From a virus: 64,000 nt of DNA. The translations under genes and the position numbers were made by a program. The notes under the pieces were generated by a model. It was not told the DNA's origin. It worked only from the letters and a program-made list of their open reading frames with translations, and searched no databases. The stretch spans positions 11,421 through 75,420 of IMG/VR virus record IMGVR_UViG_3300017989_005036; one strand, written 5' to 3'. Numbering within the stretch: the stretch's first letter is position 1; each line of letters begins with the position of its first letter. Positions 1 to 13,030 of the stretch are shown here, in pieces.

Positions 1-654
1 CTCCGGGGAACATCCAGCACAAAATCAAAGTGCTACCGAGAACGACAAAGTTTTTATTTTCTTCTGCCTGTTTTTTCAGATAGAAGTATCGTCCAAGAAA
101 CATAACTCCAAGAACGAGAAATAAGGTTGCGAGTAAAGACATATAAACCTCCTTGGTTTTAATTATCTATTGATTGATAGTCCTTTCACATATGTTGTTG
201 ATAAGGATAGCCGAACTTCTTGTAACGTTCTTCTCGCTCTTTGCGAAGTTTTTCTATTTTTCTTTTATCAATCTCTTCCTGAGAAAGTGGCTTTGGGATA
301 ATCGGTTTTTCTTTTTGGCAATCAGGTTTCTCTTCATGCTTTTGGAAAAAACGTTGATCCATTTCTTGATAGCGTTCGTTATATCTTTGGTAGTCGTTGT
401 ACATTTTCATGTGTGGAACAACAAATTGGCAATACGCCAAGAAGCCGCTGAATAAAATGAGCCAACCAATCAAAGATACAACAACAAAGATTGTAATCTT
501 GTTCAAAAAATCCTCCTTGAGTTTCAGATGAGGCAGATGCCAAAAAATGTGCACATGATAATTCTGACAATCCACCAAATGGCAACACCTAAAATTCCGA
601 AGCCAAGAATCCAATTTTTGAATTTCAGCAATGTATCGATTATTTTTTGCATTT

Positions 655-816
655 TCAGTCCTTTGAAAGGATCACATACAGAGCGTGGATCAATCCCGGA
701 AAATACCCGAAAATGGTCAGCAATATATTGATCCAAAAATGTACACCCAAACCGACTTGCAAAAGCACGCCGAGGGGTGGTATAAAGATGGAAAGGATGA
801 TTCTCAAAACATCCAT
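655..816 (-). CDS. yqaE: YqaE/Pmp3 (UPF0057) small membrane protein, 53 aa (not in ORF track)
   Basis: Hand translation MDVLRIILSIFIPPLGVLLQVGLGVHFWINILLTIFGYFPGLIHALYVILSKD matches the Pmp3 pattern (PPLGV...INILLT..GY.PG.IHA); GGAGG RBS upstream. Confidence 0.9.
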   Translation of the reverse strand: MDVLRIILSIFIPPLGVLLQVGLGVHFWINILLTIFGYFPGLIHALYVILSKD

Positions 817-1090
817 TTTTGGTCCTCCCAGTAAATCAATGTATATATTATTGATAGGAGCATTACAGTGCGTTATATCCTGATTCGATATTTTGCTTTT
901 GCTTATCTTGCTATGGGCATTTTCATTGGTGCCATGTGGGGTAATTTTGCAGAGAAAAATAAAACATTTTGGTTCATTGCTTGGTTGTTTAGCCCAATTT
1001 CTATCATCATTGTTTTTCTGTATTCCGCTGGATACACCCTTGCTACGCTGTTAGGTCTGACAAAAGAAGATTCAGATCCCTAAATAATGC

Positions 1091-1813
1091 ATGCTCAAAT
1101 CGTTGAATAAATGGATTAACGAAAACAATCTTCGAGGTGAATACTGGATTGATGAAGGTGGTGGCACCTATTACGCCGATGGTGATGTTGGTGATTACAA
1201 CCATGAAGCTCACGTAATCAACATTGTTTCACAAAGCGTTGCTGAACAACTTGAAGATTACGATGGAACTTATGACGAGGTTGACCTTGATCACCTTCTC
1301 AATTTTATCGATGAAAATGAACTGGAAGATCAAATAGACCCAAATGAACTGGAAGTTTTATACGGTTCAGTTGATGCTCGTGAATATGCCATGAAGCATT
1401 GGGGCTGGAAAAGAGTTGTCAACCATGATGTTGAAACATGGAATGCCTCACCAGCAGATTTAAAAACAATAGGGTCTGGTTTAGGTGACATTATGTCTCA
1501 AGAAGGCATATTTGATGCACCTGAAAATGTCATAAATCAAATGGAATTTTATGTGTATTCCTACGCTACCGGGCAATCAAAAACATACACATTGTCTCAA
1601 CTCGAAAACGGAGGCATGTCCCCGGATATGCCGACTATGCAATTACCTTCCCAAACAGCCATTGCAATGAAAAATCAGGGGCAAACCAATATTGCCCGCA
1701 ACCAATTGAAAGACATAGATCTGCAAGGCATGCACCCATATTATCAGGGAAAAACTTTTCCATTTGGTGATCACGTCATTGGTTTCAAACATTTTATGCA
1801 GATGTTCGACTAA
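1091..1813 (+). CDS. hypothetical acidic protein, candidate virion-internal protein
   Basis: 240 aa ORF, N-term KSLNKWINE, preceded by CTAAATA. Confidence 0.6.
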   Translation: MLKSLNKWINENNLRGEYWIDEGGGTYYADGDVGDYNHEAHVINIVSQSVAEQLEDYDGTYDEVDLDHLLNFIDENELEDQIDPNELEVLYGSVDAREYAMKHWGWKRVVNHDVETWNASPADLKTIGSGLGDIMSQEGIFDAPENVINQMEFYVYSYATGQSKTYTLSQLENGGMSPDMPTMQLPSQTAIAMKNQGQTNIARNQLKDIDLQGMHPYYQGKTFPFGDHVIGFKHFMQMFD

Positions 1814-2549
1814 TATAATGTCGCAACTCAATAACTAATAACAAGGTAACAGTTATTGGGGGAAAGATATGGCTTGGTGGAAATTCTGGAAGAGATTCCA
1901 GCATAAAGACACATTGCTTCCACACGAGCGTCTTCCTAGAAGGAGAAAAATGGACGCAGATGTAATTAGAACACGATTAGCTAACTTAGGATGGAACGTC
2001 AAGGAACTTCCTATTCGAGAAAAATTCGCTGGCAGTGGAGCACACAAAGTGATTATGTGGAAGCTTGTTGCAATTAAAGGTGACAGATCATTTGAAGTTG
2101 CAGGAAAAACTCTTCCTGAAGCTATGACAAATTTAGGACGCTCCCTTGGGGTAGTCCCACAAAATGCAAATTGATTCCATAAATACTTCCACACAAAGGA
2201 GGTGTATAATGGAAAAGAAAGAATTCATTTTTGGTTGGGGTGATCGCAAATTCACAGAAGATGAAATCAAGGTTTTACTTGATAAAATTGCGGCCTTCAA
2301 TTGTGGGGCCATCGACCAATATTTGACAAATCACATACATCGTGCATTTGAAGAATGGAAACAAGAAATGGAATAATACTCTTTACATTCATGTTTAATT
2401 TGAATATATAGAGTTAGCCGAGTGTTGATGAACATTTCGTATAAATGAAGCCCCATAAAGGCCAGAGTTCAACTCTGTTAACCACGGGGGAGGCGGCAGG
2501 AGAGATGTTTCTTAGCGCTGTAAAACGGTTCAATAAAACTGCCGTCTAT

Positions 2550-2582
2550 GAAGCCCTGTGAGATAATTCCTCACAGGGCTTC
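2550..2582 (+). terminator. 13-bp hairpin closing intergenic ncRNA candidate
   Basis: gaagccctgtgag-ataattc-ctcacagggcttc perfect inverted repeat. Confidence 0.6.
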
Positions 2583-2593
2583 TCCTTTATACC

Positions 2594-4021
2594 ATGAACA
2601 TCTGGGGCATTACAGCTACAACTCACGACGCATCTTTATCTGTCATCGAAGATGGTGAGATTCTTTTCGCAGCACACTCTGAGAGATACTCCAAAAAGAA
2701 GTTCGACCCAGAGCTGAATTTCGACATCATCATTGATGCGATGCAATATGGTAAACCCGACGTTGTTTGTTTCTATGAAAATACATGGAAAAAGAAGTGG
2801 AGACAAATTCGATGCGGAAATTTCTCTTACGCTTTCAATCGACAGAAGCTTCCTCGAAACTACCTGAAGCAATTCGGTATCAAAGCTCCCATAAAATACA
2901 CAGATCACCACTTGTCGCACGCAGCAGCAGGTTACTACACATCGTCATTCGATGATTGCGTTGCCGTCGTAATCGATTCTGTTGGTGAGTTCCAAACAAT
3001 GTCGATCTGGGATGTCAAAGATGGCCAGTTCTCCCTGAAACATGAAATGAACTTCCCTCACTCAATTGGCCTTCTGTATTCAGCGTTCACCAAGAGGTGC
3101 GGTCTCAAACCCAACAGCGAAGAATATATTCTCATGGGAATGGCTGCTTATGGACAACCAATGCATGTTGATGACATTGCCAATGATTTTCTTTGTGATT
3201 GGATGCCAAACAAAGATATTCATTGTGGAATTGGAGACTGGAAGCCCGAGGCCAAGAAAGAAGATTTGGCAGCAAGTATTCAGATCGTCTGCCAAAAACA
3301 AATTGAACAGGCGATGAACCTCGCCAGACGGTATTCCAAGAACTTGGTTTACATGGGCGGTGTGGCACTGAACTGTTTGGCGAATTCCACCATTGAGGAC
3401 TTCGACAATATTTGGATTATGCCGAATCCCGGTGATGCAGGATCATCTTTGGGTGCAGCAGCTTATCACTACGGACAAAAGTTAAACTGGAAAGGGCCTT
3501 ATCTGGGAACAGACATTCCGGGCAATTACAGTTGCGAAGAAGCCTGCGACAGACTTTTGAAAGGTGAAATCATAGGTGTTGCAAACGGCAGGGCAGAGTT
3601 TGGCCCTAGAGCTTTTGGAAACAGGTCATTGTTGGCTGATCCGAGATCACATGACATGAAAGATCAAGTCAATGTGATCAAGAGGAGACAAAAGTTCCGT
3701 CCGTTTGCTCCATCGGTGTTGGCTGAACATGCTGAGGATTGGTTTGAGATCAATCATCCTTCTCGATACATGCAGTTTGTATCGAAGTGCAAGAGATCAG
3801 ATGATGTCCCTGCGATTTGCCATGTTGATGGAACTTCTCGGGTTCAAACTGTGTCTCGAAATGACAACGCCAAATACCACGAACTTTTGAGTTTATTTTT
3901 TGAGAAGACGGGTTGCCCAATGTTGCTGAACACGAGCCTGAACATTCGAGGGATGCCATTGGTCAACGATGAAAGAGATGCAAGGATGTTCTCTGAAAGA
4001 TACAATGTTGTTGTGTTTTGA
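2594..4021 (+). CDS. CmcH/NodU/TobZ-family O-carbamoyltransferase
   Basis: HDAS..., ERYSKKK, HHLSHAA, GGVALNC, PNPGDAGSSLGAA, EFGPRAFGNRS, RPFAP, HVDGTSRVQTV, LNTSLN motifs. Confidence 0.93.
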   Translation: MNIWGITATTHDASLSVIEDGEILFAAHSERYSKKKFDPELNFDIIIDAMQYGKPDVVCFYENTWKKKWRQIRCGNFSYAFNRQKLPRNYLKQFGIKAPIKYTDHHLSHAAAGYYTSSFDDCVAVVIDSVGEFQTMSIWDVKDGQFSLKHEMNFPHSIGLLYSAFTKRCGLKPNSEEYILMGMAAYGQPMHVDDIANDFLCDWMPNKDIHCGIGDWKPEAKKEDLAASIQIVCQKQIEQAMNLARRYSKNLVYMGGVALNCLANSTIEDFDNIWIMPNPGDAGSSLGAAAYHYGQKLNWKGPYLGTDIPGNYSCEEACDRLLKGEIIGVANGRAEFGPRAFGNRSLLADPRSHDMKDQVNVIKRRQKFRPFAPSVLAEHAEDWFEINHPSRYMQFVSKCKRSDDVPAICHVDGTSRVQTVSRNDNAKYHELLSLFFEKTGCPMLLNTSLNIRGMPLVNDERDARMFSERYNVVVF

Positions 4022-4044
4022 TTCGATTTTGATACAATGAAATG

Positions 4045-4278
4045 AATCCCCCATGTCATCGCAGCACTCCCAGAGGGTGTTGAGGAAGGTCAGGGCATCA
4101 TTGCTTAAAGTGGGAGAGTTCGCTCGTCAATACCACTGAGGATGCAATCCCAAGCAGGCTGAGCAGGTGAGCAATGCTATGAAAGCCGGGTGAGGAGCAG
4201 CGGCAAACCCGCAAGGGACCGCCAGTGAAAGCTGAGATAAATGATGGCACACGACAGAACCCTGCCTATCGGGGGATT
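4045..4278 (+). ncRNA. rnpB: minimal RNase P RNA (catalytic domain, S-domain nearly absent)
   Basis: CR-I GAGGAAGGUCAGGGC (4082-4096) and CR-V ACAGAACCCUGCCUAU (4254-4269) form P4 with compensatory changes relative to the usual AAGUCCGGG/CCCGGCUU; P1 aatccccc/gggggatt; P2 tgtcatc/gatggca; P3 hairpin; P5 gcatc/gatgc; CR-IV AGAUAAAUGA; extended -10 TGaTACAAT at 4030-4038. Confidence 0.9.
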
Positions 4279-4294
4279 TTTTGACAAACAAGAT

Positions 4295-4438
4295 TTGAAA
4301 GAAGCCATTGATAATCACATTCGTGTTCTAAGTGATTTTCGAAGCACATTGTTTTTAGACCCAAATTTTCTTGACCAAATAATGAACGATCATCCCAAAC
4401 GACCAATTGAAAAAATTGATTGGAAACAAGGCTTTTAA
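4295..4438 (+). CDS. small protein with C-terminal IDWKQGF motif
   Basis: ORF track 4241..4438 overlaps the RNase P RNA, so the start was moved to an in-frame TTG (uncertain). Confidence 0.5.
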   Translation: MKEAIDNHIRVLSDFRSTLFLDPNFLDQIMNDHPKRPIEKIDWKQGF

Positions 4439-4502
4439 AATGGAAAACGAAGAACAATGATGTGCAAGCTAAAAATTAGACCACCAATTATGGACAAGTA
4501 AC

Positions 4503-4856
4503 ATGAAGAAAATTGAACGCCAAGGAACAGAAACTTTAACTATACAAAACTGCCCTTGTTGCAATGGAGAGATTGAAGTCAGTGAATGTGGTTATTCAAG
4601 TTTCAATCCCGGAACAGCAAAGTGTGTTGGAAAATGCAAACGTAAATGGGATCTTGGTTATGTGAATAATGAATGGGATTGTGGCGAAAGGTGGAATGAA
4701 CTTTCCCGAGAAATTAAGCGAAAACTAAAAGCTTTCAAATTACTGGAAGTCAATAATACACTCGCTTCTTCACGTGATTTTGAACGTGAAGCTTTAGCAG
4801 AAGAAGCTGAGCTACTTTTAAAAGAACTTGAAGAACAAATCATTGATGCTTCTTAA
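4503..4856 (+). CDS. hypothetical Cys-rich (zinc-binding) protein
   Basis: CPCC...C..KC motifs. Confidence 0.5.
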   Translation: MKKIERQGTETLTIQNCPCCNGEIEVSECGYSSFNPGTAKCVGKCKRKWDLGYVNNEWDCGERWNELSREIKRKLKAFKLLEVNNTLASSRDFEREALAEEAELLLKELEEQIIDAS

Positions 4857-5242
4857 CCAACTTTTTGCTTCCACATATCAGCATTCCAATGAATAGCAGG
4901 AACACTGGTTGTTCTCATTTTGTTATCAGACCCAATGATGTCTGCAACTTTTTGCCAATCTTCAAATGGCGGAAATTTAGGTTCTGGAGTTAATTCTTTC
5001 TCTCCTTGATAGAATCTCATGTTAAGTTTAGGGTTGGTACTGGGAGCATTGATCCAACCATTTTTAGTCAATAAGCTCACGCCGGTAATTGATGGTTTTT
5101 TATCTGCGTAAGCTCCCCACAATTCTATTCTCAAGTCAATTATTTTGACCTCTTGCGGACCATTACCGATATCTATCGTAACTGGTTCATCAAAATGGAT
5201 ATAACCATCTTCGTTCAATATTAGCCATTCCTTGAAGTTCAT
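4853..5242 (-). CDS. hypothetical protein with MNFKEWL N-terminus
   Basis: ORF with recurring N-terminal motif; TATATA just upstream. Confidence 0.6.
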   Translation of the reverse strand: MNFKEWLILNEDGYIHFDEPVTIDIGNGPQEVKIIDLRIELWGAYADKKPSITGVSLLTKNGWINAPSTNPKLNMRFYQGEKELTPEPKFPPFEDWQKVADIIGSDNKMRTTSVPAIHWNADMWKQKVG

Positions 5243-5656
5243 AGGAATATATACATACGATATGTCCGAATTTGCTCCTCAACTTATACCGAAGACTTGG
5301 TATGTCTACGATTTTCCGTTGACAGCCACAAAACCGCATCCTTCTACAGCCACTTATGGTGGGTCTAGAACAGATGCTTTGATCAAAAGTGCTGCAACGA
5401 TGCTCAGCATAGATCCAGAACGTGTTACGCTCCGATACGACAACAATAAACCTGATAGATCTGATCAAATTGATGTGACGTATGGTGGAAACCCTAAAGC
5501 ATGTTCCGTAAAGCCAAAACATCCTGAATTGCCGGGGACAAATCCTATGGCAAAATATAACAAAAGAGCAAAGAGATCAAAAACGCTTAAGAAATTTCAA
5601 GACAACTCTCCAGCAAACATTGAATATTTTCAACCATTTAATCCTTGTGATGCTTT

Positions 5657-5911
5657 TTAATCTTGAATCATTTGATCATCAGTCGTATTTGACACAACAT
5701 CAGCAATTATATTTGAAGACCGAACGTCGGAAGTGGGCTCTGATTTCTTTTTTTCGCTTGCCCATACCTGTGACAGCATCCAACCAATAGCAGTAAAATA
5801 AGCAGCGGTAATGATCCCAATCCACTCAAGATAGAGAAAACTATACCATCCCATTACGGCAGCCATGCCGATTATAACAAGTGTTTGAAAAAGCTTCCAC
5901 AATGTTTTCAT
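5657..5911 (-). CDS. small two-TM membrane protein
   Basis: two hydrophobic segments; GGAGG RBS. Confidence 0.6.
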   Translation of the reverse strand: MKTLWKLFQTLVIIGMAAVMGWYSFLYLEWIGIITAAYFTAIGWMLSQVWASEKKKSEPTSDVRSSNIIADVVSNTTDDQMIQD

Positions 5912-6048
5912 GATCCTCCTTGAACGGATGCGGAACCACTTATGTTAACTCCACCAGTTGCTTTTATTGAAACAACTGGTTTCTTTTTTCTTTTGAACCT
6001 ACGAGAACGACCTCGTGATCCACCTCTACTTCTGCCGCACCCACACAT
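5908..6048 (-). CDS. 46-aa basic Arg/Gly-rich protein (not in ORF track)
   Basis: MCGCGRSRGGSRGRSRRFKRKKKPVV...; stop overlaps next ATG (ATGA); CTAGATA upstream. Confidence 0.55.
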   Translation of the reverse strand: MCGCGRSRGGSRGRSRRFKRKKKPVVSIKATGGVNISGSASVQGGS

Positions 6049-6067
6049 GAAAATATCTAGGTGTTAT

Positions 6068-6346
6068 TTAGAAGCCTTCCAAAAGCCAATTTTGGTTTGA
6101 AGGTTTCACAAAACAATTGCTCATTGCCCCTAAAATTTCACGCCAATTAGGCCCAAGATTTTTCTCTATACGAGAACTCCAAAAGTCATTTCTTTCATTG
6201 AGGGTCATTTCTTGAAATTCTTCTGGTTCAGGAAAGGTACCGGAAATTGCAAAAACCTTCAAAAACTCATCTGAGACTTCTCCTTTTTGGTGACGAGCCA
6301 CAATTGAATTTGCCATTTTTGTGGTCAAAACCCCTCCTTCTTCCAT
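6068..6346 (-). CDS. small protein with C-terminal NWLLEGF motif
   Basis: ORF track; true start probably ~6316. Confidence 0.6.
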   Translation of the reverse strand: MEEGGVLTTKMANSIVARHQKGEVSDEFLKVFAISGTFPEPEEFQEMTLNERNDFWSSRIEKNLGPNWREILGAMSNCFVKPSNQNWLLEGF

Positions 6347-6459
6347 GCTACATTTACAGGTTTTAATTCTAACGGAGTTCCTTCAATACAAGGAACAGAA
6401 CCTTGTTCAATAAAAACATCCAAGATATCATTTATCCGTCTTAATTCTTCTTCATGCAT
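6325..6459 (-). CDS. 44-aa protein with C-terminal VAWKKEGF motif (not in ORF track)
   Basis: Hand translation MHEEELRRINDILDVFIEQGSVPCIEGTPLELKPVNVAWKKEGF*; TATATA upstream. Confidence 0.65.
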   Translation of the reverse strand: MHEEELRRINDILDVFIEQGSVPCIEGTPLELKPVNVAWKKEGF

Positions 6460-6475
6460 TTCCAATATATAGGGA

Positions 6476-6673
6476 TCAAAACCCATCCTTCTGCCAATTT
6501 ACTTTATTAACAGAGAAAGGCAGATGGGGGATTTGTACGACAATTCCAGAAACTTCTGGATTATCTGATGTTCGCCAACCATATCTCAAAGATAGTGGCG
6601 TTGTTTCTTCCCGCCGACGATCAACAATGTCTTGACGGGTCAATTGGAGCGGATTTTGTCGATGATTAAACAC
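6476..6673 (-). CDS. small protein with C-terminal VNWQKDGF motif
   Basis: ORF track. Confidence 0.6.
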   Translation of the reverse strand: MFNHRQNPLQLTRQDIVDRRREETTPLSLRYGWRTSDNPEVSGIVVQIPHLPFSVNKVNWQKDGF

Positions 6674-6686
6674 ATGTTATGTAGAC

Positions 6687-7304
6687 TTAATGAGCCAATG
6701 TGTTTTTGATCAACTTTTCTGCATTGAAGAGACGACCACGCTGAAAATCAGGTCGTACAATTTTGTACCGATTTGTAATCCATTTGCCATTACAAACCTT
6801 TACATAGATGCCTTCACGAAGGCCAGTGCCGCCAAATGAAGCAGGTTTTTCTATTAAATCAATATATCCTGAAAAATCTTTATTTAAAGGTATTTCAGAG
6901 AGCTTAGGAGACGTACTAAAGCCAGATTCCTGAAGAGCCCTTCGAGCCATTCTTGGTGAATAAAAATCATTATTTGAATGAAGAAATAAATCAAAAGCAA
7001 TTAACCACGATGGAAGCTCTGTGTATTCCATTCCATGTTGCATGACCATCCATTCGCCATAAACGCTACATGGTCCTACAAGCTCTTCCAGAGCCTCAAA
7101 TTGGCTTTTATGATCGTAGACCCAGTTCCAGATACTGGCAAATTGTCGTTGTGAAGAAGCCTGAGAAGGATTTCGGCCTTTTCGGAGGATTTTATCTTTG
7201 ATCCGAATTTTAGGATGCCCTTCGTGGAAGCACATTCCTACCATAGCACCATCAATTTTTTCCTCCACATTCACATACCCAATTGGATCACAAAGACGTT
7301 TTAT
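6687..7304 (-). pseudogene. ATP-dependent RNA ligase family, 3' part (interrupted by IS)
   Basis: nucleotidyltransferase motifs EEKIDG, YGEW, AFD, REGIYVK, YKIVRPDF. Confidence 0.8.
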
Positions 7305-7458
7305 CCCTAAAGCGGCGTGAAAACCCCTACCAATTCTAAAAAAGAATTGGCTGGTCATAAGCGAAGCGACCGAAGGGAGCAAGCATGACCAGCCCTTTAG
7401 GGTAGGGGATGAAACGCCGTGAGCTAGAAATGGTCTAAAAATGGGTTTCACCTAACCG

Positions 7459-7731
7459 CTAATCAACTGATCTTACGGTTGGTTCACACTCGACAACATC
7501 CATTCCGTTAGAAGTTGCCTCAAAGTCTTTTCCTTCTTCCCTACCATACAACTTCCACAACGTATCCTGATATTGCTGCTCATCGCAGTCAGGGTTTGTC
7601 TCTTGGAAGTGCCGCTTCCCAATATGGCTTTCCATGTATTCTCTAAGACGAACCACTGCTTCACCTTCATCCTTGCCCACAGGACCGTTCACGCCAGCAA
7701 TGGTTGCTACAAATTTTACACTCATGTTCAT
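7459..7731 (-). CDS. IS passenger hypothetical protein (90 aa)
   Basis: ORF inside the IS ends, downstream of tnpA, with AAGGAG RBS. Confidence 0.65.
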   Translation of the reverse strand: MNMSVKFVATIAGVNGPVGKDEGEAVVRLREYMESHIGKRHFQETNPDCDEQQYQDTLWKLYGREEGKDFEATSNGMDVVECEPTVRSVD

Positions 7732-7740
7732 ACTCCTTAT

Positions 7741-8148
7741 TTAGCCTTGTTCTTCAATGTATTGTCTAATCGTATCGGTCGAGGCATCGCCTGTCGTGCA
7801 GACAAAGTATCCATCACTCCAAAACGTCTTCTCATTCCAGAAGTGCCGAGACAAGAATGTATCAAATTTCTTCCAGATATGGAATGTTGATTGCGACTTC
7901 AACCGATTGACTATATCGAACGCAGACAAGGTTGGCGGTGCATCTACCAGAACGTGGATGTGATCTTTGTCCGTTTCGAGAACATCAATCGTAAAACCCG
8001 ACTTCTCAGCGATCTCATAGAACAATCTCTTGATCTCATCATCAATTACCTTCGTCCAGAGCAATTTCTTACGATACTTCACACAAAAGACGAAATGATA
8101 TTTCATCAAGTATTTGCTGTGCGAGCCGTGATGATATTTTTTCTCCAT
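7741..8148 (-). CDS. tnpA: IS200/IS605 Y1 HUH transposase
   Basis: YHFVFCVKYR, DHIH (HUH), LKSQS, FWSDGYF, YIEEQ. Confidence 0.95.
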   Translation of the reverse strand: MEKKYHHGSHSKYLMKYHFVFCVKYRKKLLWTKVIDDEIKRLFYEIAEKSGFTIDVLETDKDHIHVLVDAPPTLSAFDIVNRLKSQSTFHIWKKFDTFLSRHFWNEKTFWSDGYFVCTTGDASTDTIRQYIEEQG

Positions 8149-8228
8149 TTTGTCCTCAGAAATTTTGAGCCAACATACTACATAATTATGCCCAAGAAGA
8201 ATTATAGCATAATTGGTGGTAAAAAGGA

Positions 8229-9398
8229 ATGGCTCATTACACTTACAAGTTCAGACTCTATCCTAATAAAGAACAGCAACGACGGTTCGCTGCTCACTTT
8301 GGTTGCGTCCGCTTTGTGTATAACCACTTCCTTGATGAACGTAAAACTGCTTATGAGCAAAATGGCGAGAGTCCAAACTACTATGACCAAGCGGCAACGC
8401 TCACTAAGTTGAAGAAAGAAAAAACTTGGTTGAAGGAAACTAATAGTCAAGTATTGCAATTCTCGCTCAAATGTTTGCAGGCAGCATACAACAACTTCTT
8501 TGCGAAACGAGCGAAGTTTCCTCGTTTTCACGCCAAGAAAAACAAGCAATCGTTCACTATTCCACAACATGTCAAAGTTCAAGATGGCAAGTTGTATTTT
8601 CCGAAGTTTAGTGATGGAGTGAAAGTCAAGCTACATCGCCAGATTGATGGAGAAATCAAACATGCTACGGTCAGCAAGAATTGTGCTGGTCAATACTTTG
8701 TCTGTATTCTTGTAGAACGAAACATCAAATCACTTCCCAAATTAAAGAGAGAAGTGGGAATTGATCTTGGTATTACTGCATTGGCAACACCTTCTGTCGG
8801 CAAGGCGTATGAGAACATCCGACCTTACAAGACATTGCAACGAAAGTTGCGAAAGTTGGACAAGGACTTAGACCGCAAGGAACTTGGCAGCAAGAACCGA
8901 GAAAAAGCACGGCTCAAACTGGCTCGCCTACATAACAAGATAGCAAACATTCGTAATGACCACTTACACAAAGTTAGTCGCCAGATAGTTGATGAAAACC
9001 AAGTCATTTGTCTGGAAGACCTGAATGTGAAGGGCATGATGAAGAACCGTTGTCTTGCAAAATCAATCGCCGATGTATCGCTGTCGGAATTGGTTAGACA
9101 GATTGAATACAAGGCTGGCTGGTATGGTCGGCAAGTAATCAAAATAGATCGTTGGTTTCCGTCGAGTAAGATGTGTTCATCTTGCGGATATGTGATGGAA
9201 ACATTACCATTAGATGTTCGTTCGTGGTGTTGTCCTCGTTGTGAAAGTAAACATAACCGAGACAAGAATGCAGCGAAGAATATCTTGGTTGAAGGAAAAA
9301 GAACCGTAGGAACTACGGAGTTAGCCTGTGGACTTGGCGTAAGACTTGAGAGCAATCGAAAGCGGCTAAGGGTGAAGCAGGAAGCCCCGACCCTTTAG
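8229..9398 (+). CDS. tnpB: TnpB RNA-guided endonuclease
   Basis: YKFRLYP, GCVRFVYN, GIDLG (RuvC I), LEDL (RuvC II), CSSC...CPRC zinc ribbon, RDKNAAKNI (RuvC III). Confidence 0.96.
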   Translation: MAHYTYKFRLYPNKEQQRRFAAHFGCVRFVYNHFLDERKTAYEQNGESPNYYDQAATLTKLKKEKTWLKETNSQVLQFSLKCLQAAYNNFFAKRAKFPRFHAKKNKQSFTIPQHVKVQDGKLYFPKFSDGVKVKLHRQIDGEIKHATVSKNCAGQYFVCILVERNIKSLPKLKREVGIDLGITALATPSVGKAYENIRPYKTLQRKLRKLDKDLDRKELGSKNREKARLKLARLHNKIANIRNDHLHKVSRQIVDENQVICLEDLNVKGMMKNRCLAKSIADVSLSELVRQIEYKAGWYGRQVIKIDRWFPSSKMCSSCGYVMETLPLDVRSWCCPRCESKHNRDKNAAKNILVEGKRTVGTTELACGLGVRLESNRKRLRVKQEAPTL

Positions 9399-9415
9399 GG
9401 TCGTGGGTAGTTCAC

Positions 9416-9520
9416 TGAAGCATCTCGTGAACAAAGTGTATCCCAGTTGATATCAGAATCGCAAGGTAGCTGAATAGCTTTAGGTAATTGAGGAAGAATG
9501 TATTGAATTGGGGTTTTCAT
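9416..9520 (-). pseudogene. RNA ligase 5' part (35 codons)
   Basis: MKTPIQYILPQLPKAIQLPCDSDINWDTLCSRDAS joins in frame to the 3' part across the IS; ATG overlaps upstream stop. Confidence 0.75.
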
Positions 9521-9834
9521 CGTGGGCCTACAGAATTTGTCCAACCTGCTTTACGTTGGTTGACACCAAGAATCTTCTCTCCAAAATATAATGAGGCGTA
9601 AAAGAAAAATATCAAAATTCGAAAAAGAAACCATGACGGACTGGTTGCCCGCAGGACAAAAGCCGCAATAACAAAAAATACTCTGTCAACAGTGTCAATT
9701 GGTTCTCTGAATTTGTCTATTTGATTTTGAGCTTCTTTACGCCCCCAAGTGAACATGCCAAGTACATAAAGGCTAATCCATAACCATGGATTATTCACAT
9801 TAACGGTCATTTGTGACAGTTCTTCCAAATTCAT
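9517..9834 (-). CDS. hypothetical membrane protein
   Basis: hydrophobic segments, translationally coupled to neighbours. Confidence 0.5.
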   Translation of the reverse strand: MNLEELSQMTVNVNNPWLWISLYVLGMFTWGRKEAQNQIDKFREPIDTVDRVFFVIAAFVLRATSPSWFLFRILIFFFYASLYFGEKILGVNQRKAGWTNSVGPR

Positions 9835-10580
9835 TAGAGAAATTTCCTTACGAATTCACTGTATTCCTCTTTCATCGGAAGTTCAAACTCTCGCTTGACC
9901 CGACGACGTTGAGCAACAACTTCTTCTTTAGAAACCGGATTAAATGCCTGTTTCTCATATTGCTCCCAATAAAGTCCAACACCACGCTTCTGCCAGTTTG
10001 GAACATTATTGAAATTGATGCCATTATGGTGCAACAATTCGTTCTTGCTACTCACCGATTTGTTCAGAAGAGTGTTAGATGCTGCTCTGGCACTTAATTG
10101 TTTTCGGAGAGTCCAGTAACAGTAAGAATTCAACGCATTCCTAGCTGCGTCTTCGTTTCTCCATCGAAAATAATCAACTACCAAATTGGTATTAGGCAAT
10201 TGAGAGATACGACAATCAAATGTTGCCACTTCTCCCATTGCCAAAGAGAATCTGGCACTCGCTTCACCTGCCAACGTGGAATTAAGTTTCCTGAGTTTTC
10301 TGTTAAACAGATTCTCTCTCAAGCCAAACAGAAGTGAAATTTCATCACTTTCGGTATAAGCGTACACAATCTCAAAGCCGCAATTCATGAGAGCTTCTGT
10401 TGTGTCTACCATCATGTCACGAAAACGAACATCGAAAGGAACTTCAAAGTTGCCAGTTTTAGTCAGCTTTGTGAAACCACGTCCATCGAGACGAGCAACC
10501 ATGTACATGCCCGGCAAGACACATGCATCTGCTGCTGTCTCGAAGACACGCATTTTGTTGTCAAGTTCTTTGAACTTCAT
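9834..10580 (-). CDS. tRNA(His) guanylyltransferase / Thg1-like 3'-5' polymerase
   Basis: ARLDGRGFTKLT, YTESDEISL, FDCR, DYFRWRNEDAARN, GINFN..P.WQKRG. Confidence 0.95.
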   Translation of the reverse strand: MKFKELDNKMRVFETAADACVLPGMYMVARLDGRGFTKLTKTGNFEVPFDVRFRDMMVDTTEALMNCGFEIVYAYTESDEISLLFGLRENLFNRKLRKLNSTLAGEASARFSLAMGEVATFDCRISQLPNTNLVVDYFRWRNEDAARNALNSYCYWTLRKQLSARAASNTLLNKSVSSKNELLHHNGINFNNVPNWQKRGVGLYWEQYEKQAFNPVSKEEVVAQRRRVKREFELPMKEEYSEFVRKFL

Positions 10581-11850
10581 CTTTTCTCTCTGTGACGCTT
10601 ACAAATCCGCCAGTCTTTTGACTGAGATCAAAGTTTTCATCAATGAAGTTAATGACCTCATCAGGAGAGACACTGCGATTGAACACAATGTTCGGTCCAT
10701 GTTCCTCTAAATAGACAGCCCAGAGATTCCCAAACTGTTTGAGCCCTTTGCTCGTGTTCTCCCCGCATTGGTGGCTGCCGCACTCAAATTCTCTCTGAGA
10801 GACAGTTGGAACTTGAGAATCTTCTTTCAGGGGGCAATGAAAATGCACGATGCAATCAAGGTCTGGGTGATCCTCAAACACAATTCGTTGTGACTGACCA
10901 CCCACACTCGGTTTTGCGCCATAAGCGAGAACAGTGTCTGGTCCATCGGTTACAATTTTCACCAGACCAATATCTTTCAGGTCATTGAAATTCGTCCGAC
11001 GCTGACTGGTTAAGAAAGTAGTGTCAGACAGTTTGCAAGCAAAATGACCAACTGTTGCACCGTTGAAGGGTTTGTATGCACCACTCATAATGCAATGATC
11101 CACAACTGCACGAAGTGAATCAGGAACCTGATTAGAATTCCAAGAAACAGGCTCGCCTTCAACAACAGTCGAACGTGTGAAGGTCAGATGGGATCTGAGC
11201 TTAGCCATTTCAACCAAATTAGTCAGTGCTTCATCACGATTTGTTGTCACATGATATCGAGCTTCTTCAGGAGTAATAATCATGTTGAGACGAGACTTTG
11301 TGTCATTGGCAAACACAAGGTTACAACTAGCTTTTTTACACAAGCCCAAACCAGCAATGTATTGTTCATCTTCAGTGGCTCCGCATGTTTGTTTGAAACC
11401 AACGAGGAAGATGTCTTTTCGTTTTTCACGAACCTTTCTGATGACTTTGTCAGCAGGCGTTAAATCAATGCTATAACTCTTGCTAGAAGAGAGTCTGGCA
11501 CCATACTTACCAGCTTCCAAAGTCTCATCTGGGTTTTCTTGCGTGTAAACTTTGCCATCAAAATCCACCATCGCCGCTGAGAAGAACACAATCTTTGTGA
11601 CATCATCGTTGATGATGCGATCAATCAGCTTGGCGACATCTTCATTGGTTTCTAAACGAAAGTCTGTCCAATTTGAACCGCCCGCCATTCGTGTCAGATA
11701 GAGTTTCGAATCCATTTCTGGAATTGTCGATTCACAAATTTGCTTGATAGCTCGTGCAGTGCTTCCGTAAGCAGGAGCTGTCAAAGCTAAATGAGAACTG
11801 ATCCAAGAAACAGTTCCGCCACCAATAATTGCAATTTGTTTTTTGTCCAT
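10561..11850 (-). CDS. fusion: CoaB (PPC synthetase)-like N-domain plus class II aldolase/adducin-like C-domain
   Basis: IIGGGT..., FSAAMVDF, LVGFK, LVFAND (CoaB-like); FLTS...KPS...HPDLDCIVHFH...HG (aldolase II-like). Confidence 0.65.
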   Translation of the reverse strand: MDKKQIAIIGGGTVSWISSHLALTAPAYGSTARAIKQICESTIPEMDSKLYLTRMAGGSNWTDFRLETNEDVAKLIDRIINDDVTKIVFFSAAMVDFDGKVYTQENPDETLEAGKYGARLSSSKSYSIDLTPADKVIRKVREKRKDIFLVGFKQTCGATEDEQYIAGLGLCKKASCNLVFANDTKSRLNMIITPEEARYHVTTNRDEALTNLVEMAKLRSHLTFTRSTVVEGEPVSWNSNQVPDSLRAVVDHCIMSGAYKPFNGATVGHFACKLSDTTFLTSQRRTNFNDLKDIGLVKIVTDGPDTVLAYGAKPSVGGQSQRIVFEDHPDLDCIVHFHCPLKEDSQVPTVSQREFECGSHQCGENTSKGLKQFGNLWAVYLEEHGPNIVFNRSVSPDEVINFIDENFDLSQKTGGFVSVTERKDEVQRT

Positions 11851-11977: not shown

Positions 11978-13030
11978 TCATTTGATTCCGAACTTGTCTG
12001 AAAATTGGTCGGCCAGTTGAATGAGTTCTTCAACATCCTCAAGGCCGTGGAGTAAGTGTTTGTTTTCACTTGTTTCAAAAAACTCAAGACCATGCAAAGC
12101 ACCAAGCATTTCACCAACAAGCTTAGCGTTTGTATCAGTATCACCACCCGCCATCACAACATTGTAGAGAGAATCTATGGTGTAGGGGTTTTTCAAGAAG
12201 AAATAATAAGCAAAAGGCATGCTGTGGACAACGTAACTTTTGCCATTTCCAAATTGTTTTCGAACATCATCAAAAGTCCAAGAGTCAATCAAATGAAGCA
12301 GCGACAGATTGACCATCAGATTTTCCCAAGAGTTATCTGGGTTATTCAGATGACCTACACAATAATGCAATTTGTGCTTGCTATCTCGTTTATATTTTCG
12401 GCCATCCATTCCACGATGAATAGCCATAAAGGTCTGAGACTTGTGATATGAGATTGGAGTTTGCAACAGAAGGTTGCCAATTACTCCAGTGTGGACTACA
12501 CCCGAAAGAGCCGCAGCAGCGGTGTAATGGGTCATAGCAGAAAACTGTACAACTTTATCTGCAAAGCGAGGCCAAGGAAGTTTGTTTTTAACAGCATGCC
12601 ATGCACCAATGGGTGATATTCGCATCAAAACTCCATTGCCAACGCCAAGTCCCTTTTTATCGGTTTTACCGGATTCAGACCACCTGACGCCTTCTGAGAG
12701 TTTCTTGATGGACTCTCGTAAAGAGCCTCCCCAACCTTCTGTGGACTCTTTAAATGCTTTGACGTGATATGATGCCTGAGTCCCCATTCCGAACCCGTTG
12801 GCTCGAATCAGAGCTTTGACAACAGCAAGGCCAAGCTGAGTATCATCAGTAATGACGCCGGTTTTATCGTCCTTGAACCATTTGTTGTTTTTTGGGGCAA
12901 CATATGTGGTGACGCCATCAGGGTGATTCTTAAGAATATCTTCGTAAGACATACACTCTACAGGACGACCAAGAGCATCACCAATGGCCCCACCGACAAG
13001 CATTCCTCTAATTTTGCTGCGAGTTAGCAT
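11978..13030 (-). CDS. ADP-ribosylglycohydrolase (DraG/ARH family)
   Basis: GAIGDALG, TDDTQL, GNGVLMRISP, TH, GGDTDT. Confidence 0.93.
   Translation of the reverse strand: MLTRSKIRGMLVGGAIGDALGRPVECMSYEDILKNHPDGVTTYVAPKNNKWFKDDKTGVITDDTQLGLAVVKALIRANGFGMGTQASYHVKAFKESTEGWGGSLRESIKKLSEGVRWSESGKTDKKGLGVGNGVLMRISPIGAWHAVKNKLPWPRFADKVVQFSAMTHYTAAAALSGVVHTGVIGNLLLQTPISYHKSQTFMAIHRGMDGRKYKRDSKHKLHYCVGHLNNPDNSWENLMVNLSLLHLIDSWTFDDVRKQFGNGKSYVVHSMPFAYYFFLKNPYTIDSLYNVVMAGGDTDTNAKLVGEMLGALHGLEFFETSENKHLLHGLEDVEELIQLADQFSDKFGIK

Follow-up and report, generated by a model that had tools for sequence, protein, structure and literature searches.

A putative miniature RNase P RNA of the bacterial type A encoded by a very large uncultured phage

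The window, that is the whole 64,000-nt stretch of viral DNA analysed here, carries on its plus strand, at positions 4045-4278, the gene for a 234-nt miniature RNase P RNA that extends from the 5′ strand of helix P1 to its 3′ strand. Comparison with known RNA families and with relatives from other phages supports its placement among the RNase P RNAs as a homologue with the architecture and ancestry of bacterial type A, and the RNA probably acts as a functional catalytic subunit in the maturation of phage tRNAs, together with the RnpA protein of the host. A sequence-only reading of the same DNA had proposed a catalytic-domain RNase P RNA of ~235 nt, a proposal borne out by an end-to-end match to the Rfam family RF00010 (RNaseP_bact_a). 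In a cmscan search of window positions 3900-4450 this match covers 4043-4284 (+) with 67.4 bits (E 2.3e-20), and the alignment is global, model positions 1-367 all being spanned by the miniature RNA. The same match was obtained when the whole 75,420-bp record was searched (E 7e-22). Its score is below the Rfam gathering score of RF00010, which is 100 bits, because the S-domain model positions ~73-213 (~140 positions) are spanned by just ~37 nt, and the window as a whole has no Rfam match at or above the gathering score of the family concerned.

The covariance-model check proposed with that earlier reading thus came down on the side of RNaseP_bact_a, which is the sole Rfam RNase P model to match. 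The type B, archaeal and type T models gave zero matches, and the type T model (RF02357) had none at E ≤ 10 in the record. The minimum free energy of the single sequence is not better than that of shuffled sequences (z -0.33), so the case for the miniature RNA is one of comparison with relatives and not of thermodynamics.

The helices of the RNA were read from the sequence and their canonical pairing was checked by script, while the joining and conserved regions were placed with the RF00010 alignment. The features, in 5′ to 3′ order of their first strand, are as follows.

4045-4052/4271-4278 (+): P1, 8 bp (sequence, script)
4054-4060/4243-4249 (+): P2, 7 bp (sequence, script)
4063-4069/4075-4081 (+): P3, 7 bp (sequence, script)
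4082-4095 (+): CR-I, consisting of J3/4 GAGGAA and the P4 5′ strand AGG(U)CAGGG (RF00010 alignment)
4087-4095/4260-4267 (+): P4, 8 bp, AGG(U)CAGGG / CCCUGCCU, with bulged U4090 (sequence, script)
4096-4099/4141-4144 (+): P5, 4 bp, CAUC/GAUG (sequence, script)
4101-4105/4170-4174 (+): P6 pseudoknot, UUGCU/AGCAA, with its 3′ partner in the P17 loop (98.5% paired in 41 RNAs)
4109-4113/4133-4137 (+): P7, AGUGG/CCACU (98.5% paired)
4109-4137 (+): S-domain remnant, P7 enclosing 19 nt (covariation, loop-motif conservation)
4145-4196 (+): J5/15 CAA (3 nt), then the P15-P16-P17 arm (RF00010 alignment; P15, P16 and P17 98-100% paired and covarying)
4189-4191 (+): L15 GGU (in all 36 sequence variants of the segment)
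4200-4234 (+): two hairpins in the P18 position, both with GNRA loops (compensatory changes against L116, L076 and L054)
4235-4243 (+): CR-IV, AGAUAAAUG (RF00010 alignment)
4254-4259 (+): CR-V, which is J2/4 ACAGAA (RF00010 alignment)
4235-4267 (+): CR-IV, the P2 3′ strand, CR-V and the P4 3′ strand CCCUGCCU as one segment

The elements named in the sequence-only reading (P1, P2, P3, P4, P6, P7, P15-P17 with GGU, a P18-like arm, CR-IV and CR-V) are all located here with canonical pairs. The double compensatory change it described in P4 is likewise present, in the form of two compensated changes relative to the bacterial consensus AAG(U)CCGGG / CCCGGCUU. P5 had been drawn with five pairs (gcatc/gatgc); the four pairs CAUC/GAUG stand and the fifth was dropped, as it would compete with P4. 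In bacterial RNase P enzymes the L15 GGU pairs with the 3′ CCA of the tRNA. The two hairpins in the P18 position have the form GCGG..CCC-GCAA-GGG..CCGC and CAGU-GAAA-GCUG, and most relatives have no hairpin at this position.

Both the sequence and the RF00010 alignment show the S-domain to be reduced to P7 and a 19-nt insert. Missing are P8-P14 with CR-II and CR-III, the part of the RNA that stacks on the tRNA elbow. The ~19 nt previously estimated between the P7 strands is exactly 19 nt by count. The S-domain had been described as absent, which is correct for nearly the whole domain, but P7 and a small conserved hairpin stub are kept. The insert holds a 3-bp hairpin, GAG-UUCG-CUC, and the stub contains a GGAG / YCG..AC internal loop that is conserved across the subfamily. 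Four of the five P7 pairs covary in an alignment of 41 distinct RNAs. An S-domain supplied in trans, for which a search had been recommended, was not detected in the window's record or in the complete relatives.

True relatives were recovered with a motif-plus-spacing pattern from IMG/VR (L007, L008, L010) and from metagenomes. A covariance model, R1, was seeded by the window RNA and its 95% identical relative L116, using a hand-drawn nested structure from which P4 and P6 were left out, and the broad set assembled with R1 comprises 26 non-redundant RNAs. A second pattern pair, aimed at the subtype of the window, added 41 viral loci that were confirmed by R1. There are 47 further R1 hits at E ≤ 1e-10 from viral and metagenome loci, including LR756502.1 and LR756511.1, and the subtype alignment contains 48 hits with 41 distinct RNAs of 180-262 nt. 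The family defined by R1 accordingly consists of RNAs of 180-262 nt in phage DNA that have a type A C-domain and an S-domain reduced to the P7 stub; the window RNA, itself a seed of R1, fits this description.

Pairing of the nested helices was counted on R1-fitted alignments and is therefore inflated: in the broad set of 26, 94.9% of cells pair compared with 64.9% when shuffled, with 57 of 68 pairs changing on both sides, and in the 41 distinct RNAs of the subtype 96.2% are paired compared with 64.0% when shuffled, with a covariation score of 0.633 versus 0.158. Sliding the partner columns by 1-3 positions lowers these pairing values to 34-45% in the broad set and to 32-44% in the subtype alignment. 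P4 and P6 are exempt from the inflation, both lying outside R1. P4 is 97-98% paired (97.2% in the 41 RNAs) and six of its eight pairs change on both sides, while P6 is 98.5% paired in the same RNAs with two of five pairs changing on both sides through UA/CG and GC/UA exchanges. The window RNA and L116 differ at 25 columns, affecting eight base pairs, four of them by double compensatory change and one of them broken; this pattern of change rules out a decaying pseudogene or an assembly artefact.

While the helices drift, the L15 GGU is found in every variant, ACAGAA is found in most and the AA of J5/15 is conserved. The motifs GAGGAA..UC, GUGAGMA and AGAnAAAUG were demanded by the search patterns, such that their constancy in L256-L299 is by construction. 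P4 occurs in ~30 sequence variants among the 41 RNAs, 97% paired throughout, and is fixed only in its first A-U pair, the bulged U and the next C-G pair. To our knowledge the P4 sequence is almost invariant in cells. In the tertiary structure of type A RNAs the L8-P4 contact constrains the base identity of P4, and it is plausible that loss of the S-domain, which removes this contact, has led to the drift of P4 in the phage RNAs.

One complete phage genome of 488 kb (L290, G043) has two matches to the miniature RNA ~300 nt apart, at 2376-2617 (-) and 1884-2063 (-), the second copy being weaker (42 bits) with an aberrant CR-I region. There is also a separate metagenome group (L013, L015, L024, L035, L039, L069, L073, L080, L091, L108, L115, L121 and L124) whose members share GAGGAAAGUCCGG and, ~165 nt on, GCGCACCGCGG..CUGG..ACAGAACCGGCA. 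This group is hardly matched by R1, with only L115 giving a hit (21 bits), and may represent another RNase P type.

Other candidates were set aside. An exact 18-mer from CR-I/P4 retrieved only L002 and L003 among viral contigs, both chance matches in coding sequence, and L005, L006, L009 and most of the pattern matches in metagenomes and genomes were also due to chance. A related phage reached through the carbamoyltransferase gene (L004/G001) is a fragment without an RNase P match. Searches by blastn of GenBank phages with the window RNA and with L007 gave nothing, and only the L008 query led to LR756502.1 and LR756511.1. For cellular genomes, no phage-like miniature RNA was present among the 80 pattern matches listed. 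Cellular loci L187 and L190 are ordinary full-length rnpB genes; L179 is a weak partial match (20 bits) in a genome with an ordinary rnpB on another contig; and the rnpB of a metagenome-assembled genome (MAG), L163, has an NN scaffold gap exactly at the S-domain site and is an artefact. Contig NCEH01000129.1 of a Rhizobiales MAG (L169:7567-7794) carries an otherwise canonical rnpB, scoring 163.5 bits and so above the Rfam cut-off, in which a 9-nt loop closing P5 stands in place of the whole S-domain. It has no N's, is the sole RNase P match in that MAG, and is explained either by collapse of the assembly or by a cellular RNase P that lacks the S-domain.

The gene for the miniature RNA sits between a carbamoyltransferase gene and small unannotated ORFs. 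The signals around it and the neighbouring genes are listed here.

2594-4021 (+): carbamoyltransferase, upstream neighbour (PF16861, PF02543)
4030-4038 (+): extended -10 box TGATACAAT, 7 nt before A4045, the first base of P1
4277-4282 (+): U-run at the P1 end and just beyond it, a likely stop of transcription
6687-7451 (-): RNA ligase (PF09414, E 1e-16)
9834-10580 (-): Thg1-like tRNA-His (5′-end) guanylyltransferase / 3′-5′ polymerase (PF04446, E 4e-33; PF14413)

The extended -10 promoter pointed out earlier at the 5′ end is thus in place, and the box is identical in L116. It was not called in a sigma-70 promoter scan owing to a weak -35 element. Several stand-alone relatives have TGnTAnnAT-like boxes upstream, and members lying in arrays have no promoter of their own. 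At the other end, a terminator-like site at 4260-4274 with a T-run was reported by the scan, and the U-run is kept in L116, where a different gene begins directly after it. The miniature RNA gene appears best explained as independently transcribed. A 65-codon ORF at 4241-4438 (+) has as its start the AUG of CR-IV inside the RNA and extends 160 nt beyond it; its 5′ part is almost certainly non-coding.

Genes for the Thg1-like protein and the RNA ligase lie within 6 kb of the miniature RNA, downstream of the tRNA region, and together give the impression of a neighbourhood for the maturation or repair of tRNA. Thg1 was found in LR756511.1 and not in four other carrier genomes, and a general co-occurrence of Thg1 with the miniature RNA was rejected on this count (one of five genomes). 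The phage genome contains an inserted element of the IS200/IS605 type at window positions 7741-8148 (-) and 8229-9398 (+), with a Y1 transposase TnpA and a TnpB/OrfB that has a Cas12f-like TNB domain. The replication region of the phage also has a gene of the ADP-ribosylglycohydrolase family at 11978-13030 (-) (PF03747, E 6e-48).

The window is a replication module with phage-type helicases, a DnaB-like helicase, a DNA polymerase and a UvsX-like recombinase, and its miniature RNA is carried by a very large uncultured phage, of which the source record is estimated by CheckV to be ~15% complete. Relatives are mostly found on viral contigs of 100-530 kb. Complete or near-complete genomes of carrier phages range from 183 to 532 kb and include complete ones with direct terminal repeats. 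Among the carriers are also two published genomes of uncultured huge phages, LR756502.1 (642,428 bp) and LR756511.1 (595,163 bp), whose GenBank records are unannotated and whose copies RF00010 fails to detect. The nearest relative by far of the window's DnaB-like helicase is in LR756511.1 (36-38% identity).

No tRNA gene is present inside the 64-kb window. A search of the remainder of the record, as had been suggested, identified 11 tRNA genes in the 11.4 kb upstream (record positions 1-11420), all on the strand of the miniature RNA. They are two Tyr, one Phe, five Leu and three Ser genes, spread out and not tightly packed, and the 3′ CCA is encoded in none of the 11. The miniature RNA here does not lie within a tRNA array, the nearest tRNA gene being ~7 kb upstream. 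In the broad set tRNA genes are present at 19 of 25 loci, often directly flanking the RNA. In the subtype they are present at 29 of 47 loci, at 15 of these within 1 kb, and at 28 of the 29 all are co-oriented with the RNA; the retrieved flank of the other 18 loci has none.

With regard to a protein partner, RnpA (PF00825) was not found in the 75-kb record. The absence of rnpA from the window, already remarked upon, is hence correct, but carries little weight as the record is ~15% of the genome. The suggestion that RnpA is borrowed from the host finds better support in its absence from six complete carrier genomes, while two carriers depart from it in encoding RnpA homologues of their own (PF00825, 50-53 bits), namely L253:1687-1989 (LR756502.1) and L300:1501-1794 (G038). 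Both are small with the RNR motif intact (AVDRNR[VI]KRL), and their genes are not adjacent to those of the miniature RNAs. Two viral fragments (L254 and L255) also encode RnpA relatives, with 37-41% identity; these fragments (G010 and G011), 8% and 52% complete, have no miniature RNA match. No conserved neighbour protein emerged as a new cofactor, the best cluster being present at 8 of 47 loci. The simplest reading is that most miniature RNAs use host RnpA and that a few phages bring their own.

Taking these features together, a role in the maturation of phage tRNAs is the probable one. During infection, the miniature RNA would fold into the RNase P catalytic core and bind RnpA, which in the lineage of the window would most likely be that of the host, a few related phages encoding their own. 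The complex would then cut the 5′ leaders from precursor tRNAs, chiefly those of the phage, with the substrate recognised by its acceptor stem, cleavage site and 3′ end (through the L15 GGU) and by its leader (through RnpA), and not by the T-loop or elbow. [quoted passage not shown] In the phage RNAs P6 is retained and P18 frequently missing, as that work on C-domains would predict. Since the phage tRNA genes have no encoded CCA, the GGU-CCA contact would need prior addition of CCA.

The RNA might also be a catalytically active core that, having no domain to read the elbow, would mainly process RNAs other than tRNAs, be they hairpin-type or further RNAs of phage or host; examples are stems of the pre-4.5S kind, polycistronic transcripts of the phage and tmRNA-like RNAs. 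An E. coli RNA from which residues 94-204 had been deleted lost cleavage of pre-tRNA-Tyr and, with protein, retained only that of pre-4.5S RNA (PMC11143913), from which it follows that tRNA need not be the substrate, and the lack of tRNA genes in the window and in the flanks of the 18 subtype loci mentioned above points the same way, as does the unencoded CCA. However, most relatives are situated within co-oriented tRNA arrays or next to them, pre-tRNAs are cleaved in vitro by C-domain constructs (PMC11143913, PMC5839562), and the GGU that binds CCA is retained in every variant. Non-tRNA molecules as the main substrates are improbable.

Somewhat less probable again is a non-catalytic decoy or regulator that titrates host RnpA or another RNase P ligand, so that host tRNA maturation would be lowered or redirected to the phage tRNAs. 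This titration and a relaxed specificity were both suggested in the sequence-only reading, and both are speculative. The RnpA-binding region of bacterial P RNA lies in the C-domain, the part that is kept, and most of the complete carrier phages encode no RnpA. In addition, an inactive RNase P-like RNA has been reported from camelpox virus, although that RNA did not sequester human RNase P proteins (both as cited in PMC3001073). Against a decoy, the elements of catalysis and docking (the bulged U of P4, ACAGAA, the L15 GGU, the J5/15 adenines and P6) are conserved in divergent members, and the two carriers that add their own RnpA argue for the building of an enzyme over the starving of one. A functionless, decaying remnant of a captured host rnpB, or an assembly artefact in which the S-domain was dropped, is scarcely credible, for while such artefacts exist (the NN gap of L163, and L169 with its 9-nt loop), the present architecture is seen again in 41 distinct sequences, which stem from independent samples and show compensatory changes in each of the helices, a P7 that covaries and a conserved stub close the deletion, the window has no N's, the promoter box and U-run are common to the window and L116, and complete genomes with direct terminal repeats carry the miniature RNA.

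Type A RNase P RNAs of bacteria include M1 RNA of E. coli (rnpB, ~377 nt) and the P RNA of T. maritima. The phage RNA has in common with this type (RF00010) the entire catalytic domain, including P1-P5, P4 as a pseudoknot with a bulged U, a P6 pseudoknot that reaches into the P17 loop, the P15-P17 arm and its L15 GGU, a hairpin capped by GNRA in the P18 position, P2 of 7 bp, J5/15 of 3 nt, and CR-I, CR-IV and CR-V. It differs in having the 19-nt insert inside P7 instead of P8-P14, CR-II and CR-III, in being encoded by a phage, in scoring below the family cut-off, in the variability of P4 within the subfamily, and in the number of hairpins in the P18 position, with two in the window and none in most relatives.

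Like the archaeal type T RNAs, the phage RNA occurs naturally, is ~200 nt long and combines an intact C-domain with an S-domain of which little but P7 and short remnants is left. However, the C-domain of type T RNAs is archaeal, with P2 of 3 bp, a P5/P15 linker of 2 nt and L18 missing (PMC3579882), and these RNAs are products of a cellular, essential gene with Pop5, Rpp30 and Rpp29 as partners. The window RNA has a 7-bp P2, a linker (CAA) of 3 nt, P6 and P16-P17, and is not matched by RF02357. Membership of type T was rejected on these four points, and the likeness is one of convergent reduction.

Engineered C-domain constructs of the E. coli and B. subtilis RNAs (such as Eco CP RPR) have the same parts list as the phage RNAs and act on hairpin substrates as well as on pre-tRNA, whether or not C5 protein is present (PMC5839562, PMC11143913). 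They are laboratory deletions of reduced efficiency and affinity that lack the P7 stub, whereas the phage RNAs are natural, are under selection and possess a conserved P7 stub. The RNA of camelpox virus and other orthopoxviruses is also virus-encoded with some resemblance to RNase P RNA. It was reported to share only some secondary structure and to lack activity in pre-tRNA processing (cited in PMC3001073). It further differs in belonging to a eukaryotic virus and in the absence of a tRNA context.

RNase P RNA is generally regarded as a ribozyme universal to cells. No published description of a phage RNase P RNA was found in the full-text literature outside subscription journals, and the only viral RNase P-like RNA found there in print is the camelpox RNA, reported as inactive (PMC3001073). 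RNase P is not mentioned in the paper on huge phages (PMC7162821). As the Rfam cut-off hides the miniature RNA genes and RF00010 misses the most divergent of them, they are absent from phage annotations, including those of published reference genomes.

A bolder interpretation, to which we assign only a small chance of being right, is that large phages carry a self-contained, streamlined RNase P, a ribozyme of ~180-260 nt that works in vivo with no domain for reading the T-loop and, in most carriers, no RnpA of phage origin, perhaps acting free of protein or with an unrecognised phage protein. If so, these phages would mature their tRNA arrays without depending on the host enzyme or in rivalry with it, the drift of P4 would reflect the lost S-domain contacts that fix P4 in cells, and the RNA would rank as a minimal trans-acting ribozyme of natural origin and would add a new layer to the viral takeover of translation.

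With a virus-encoded RNase P RNA of bacterial type from which the specificity domain has naturally gone, a ribozyme would join the translation-related functions that huge phages bring to infection. The miniature RNAs would be nature's counterpart of the C-domain-only constructs, hitherto studied as laboratory deletions only, and would offer dozens of natural variants of the catalytic core, including a freely varying yet paired P4, with which the nucleotides that catalysis needs may be dissected. The independence of these phages from host tRNA processing, or their competition with it, would then become testable.
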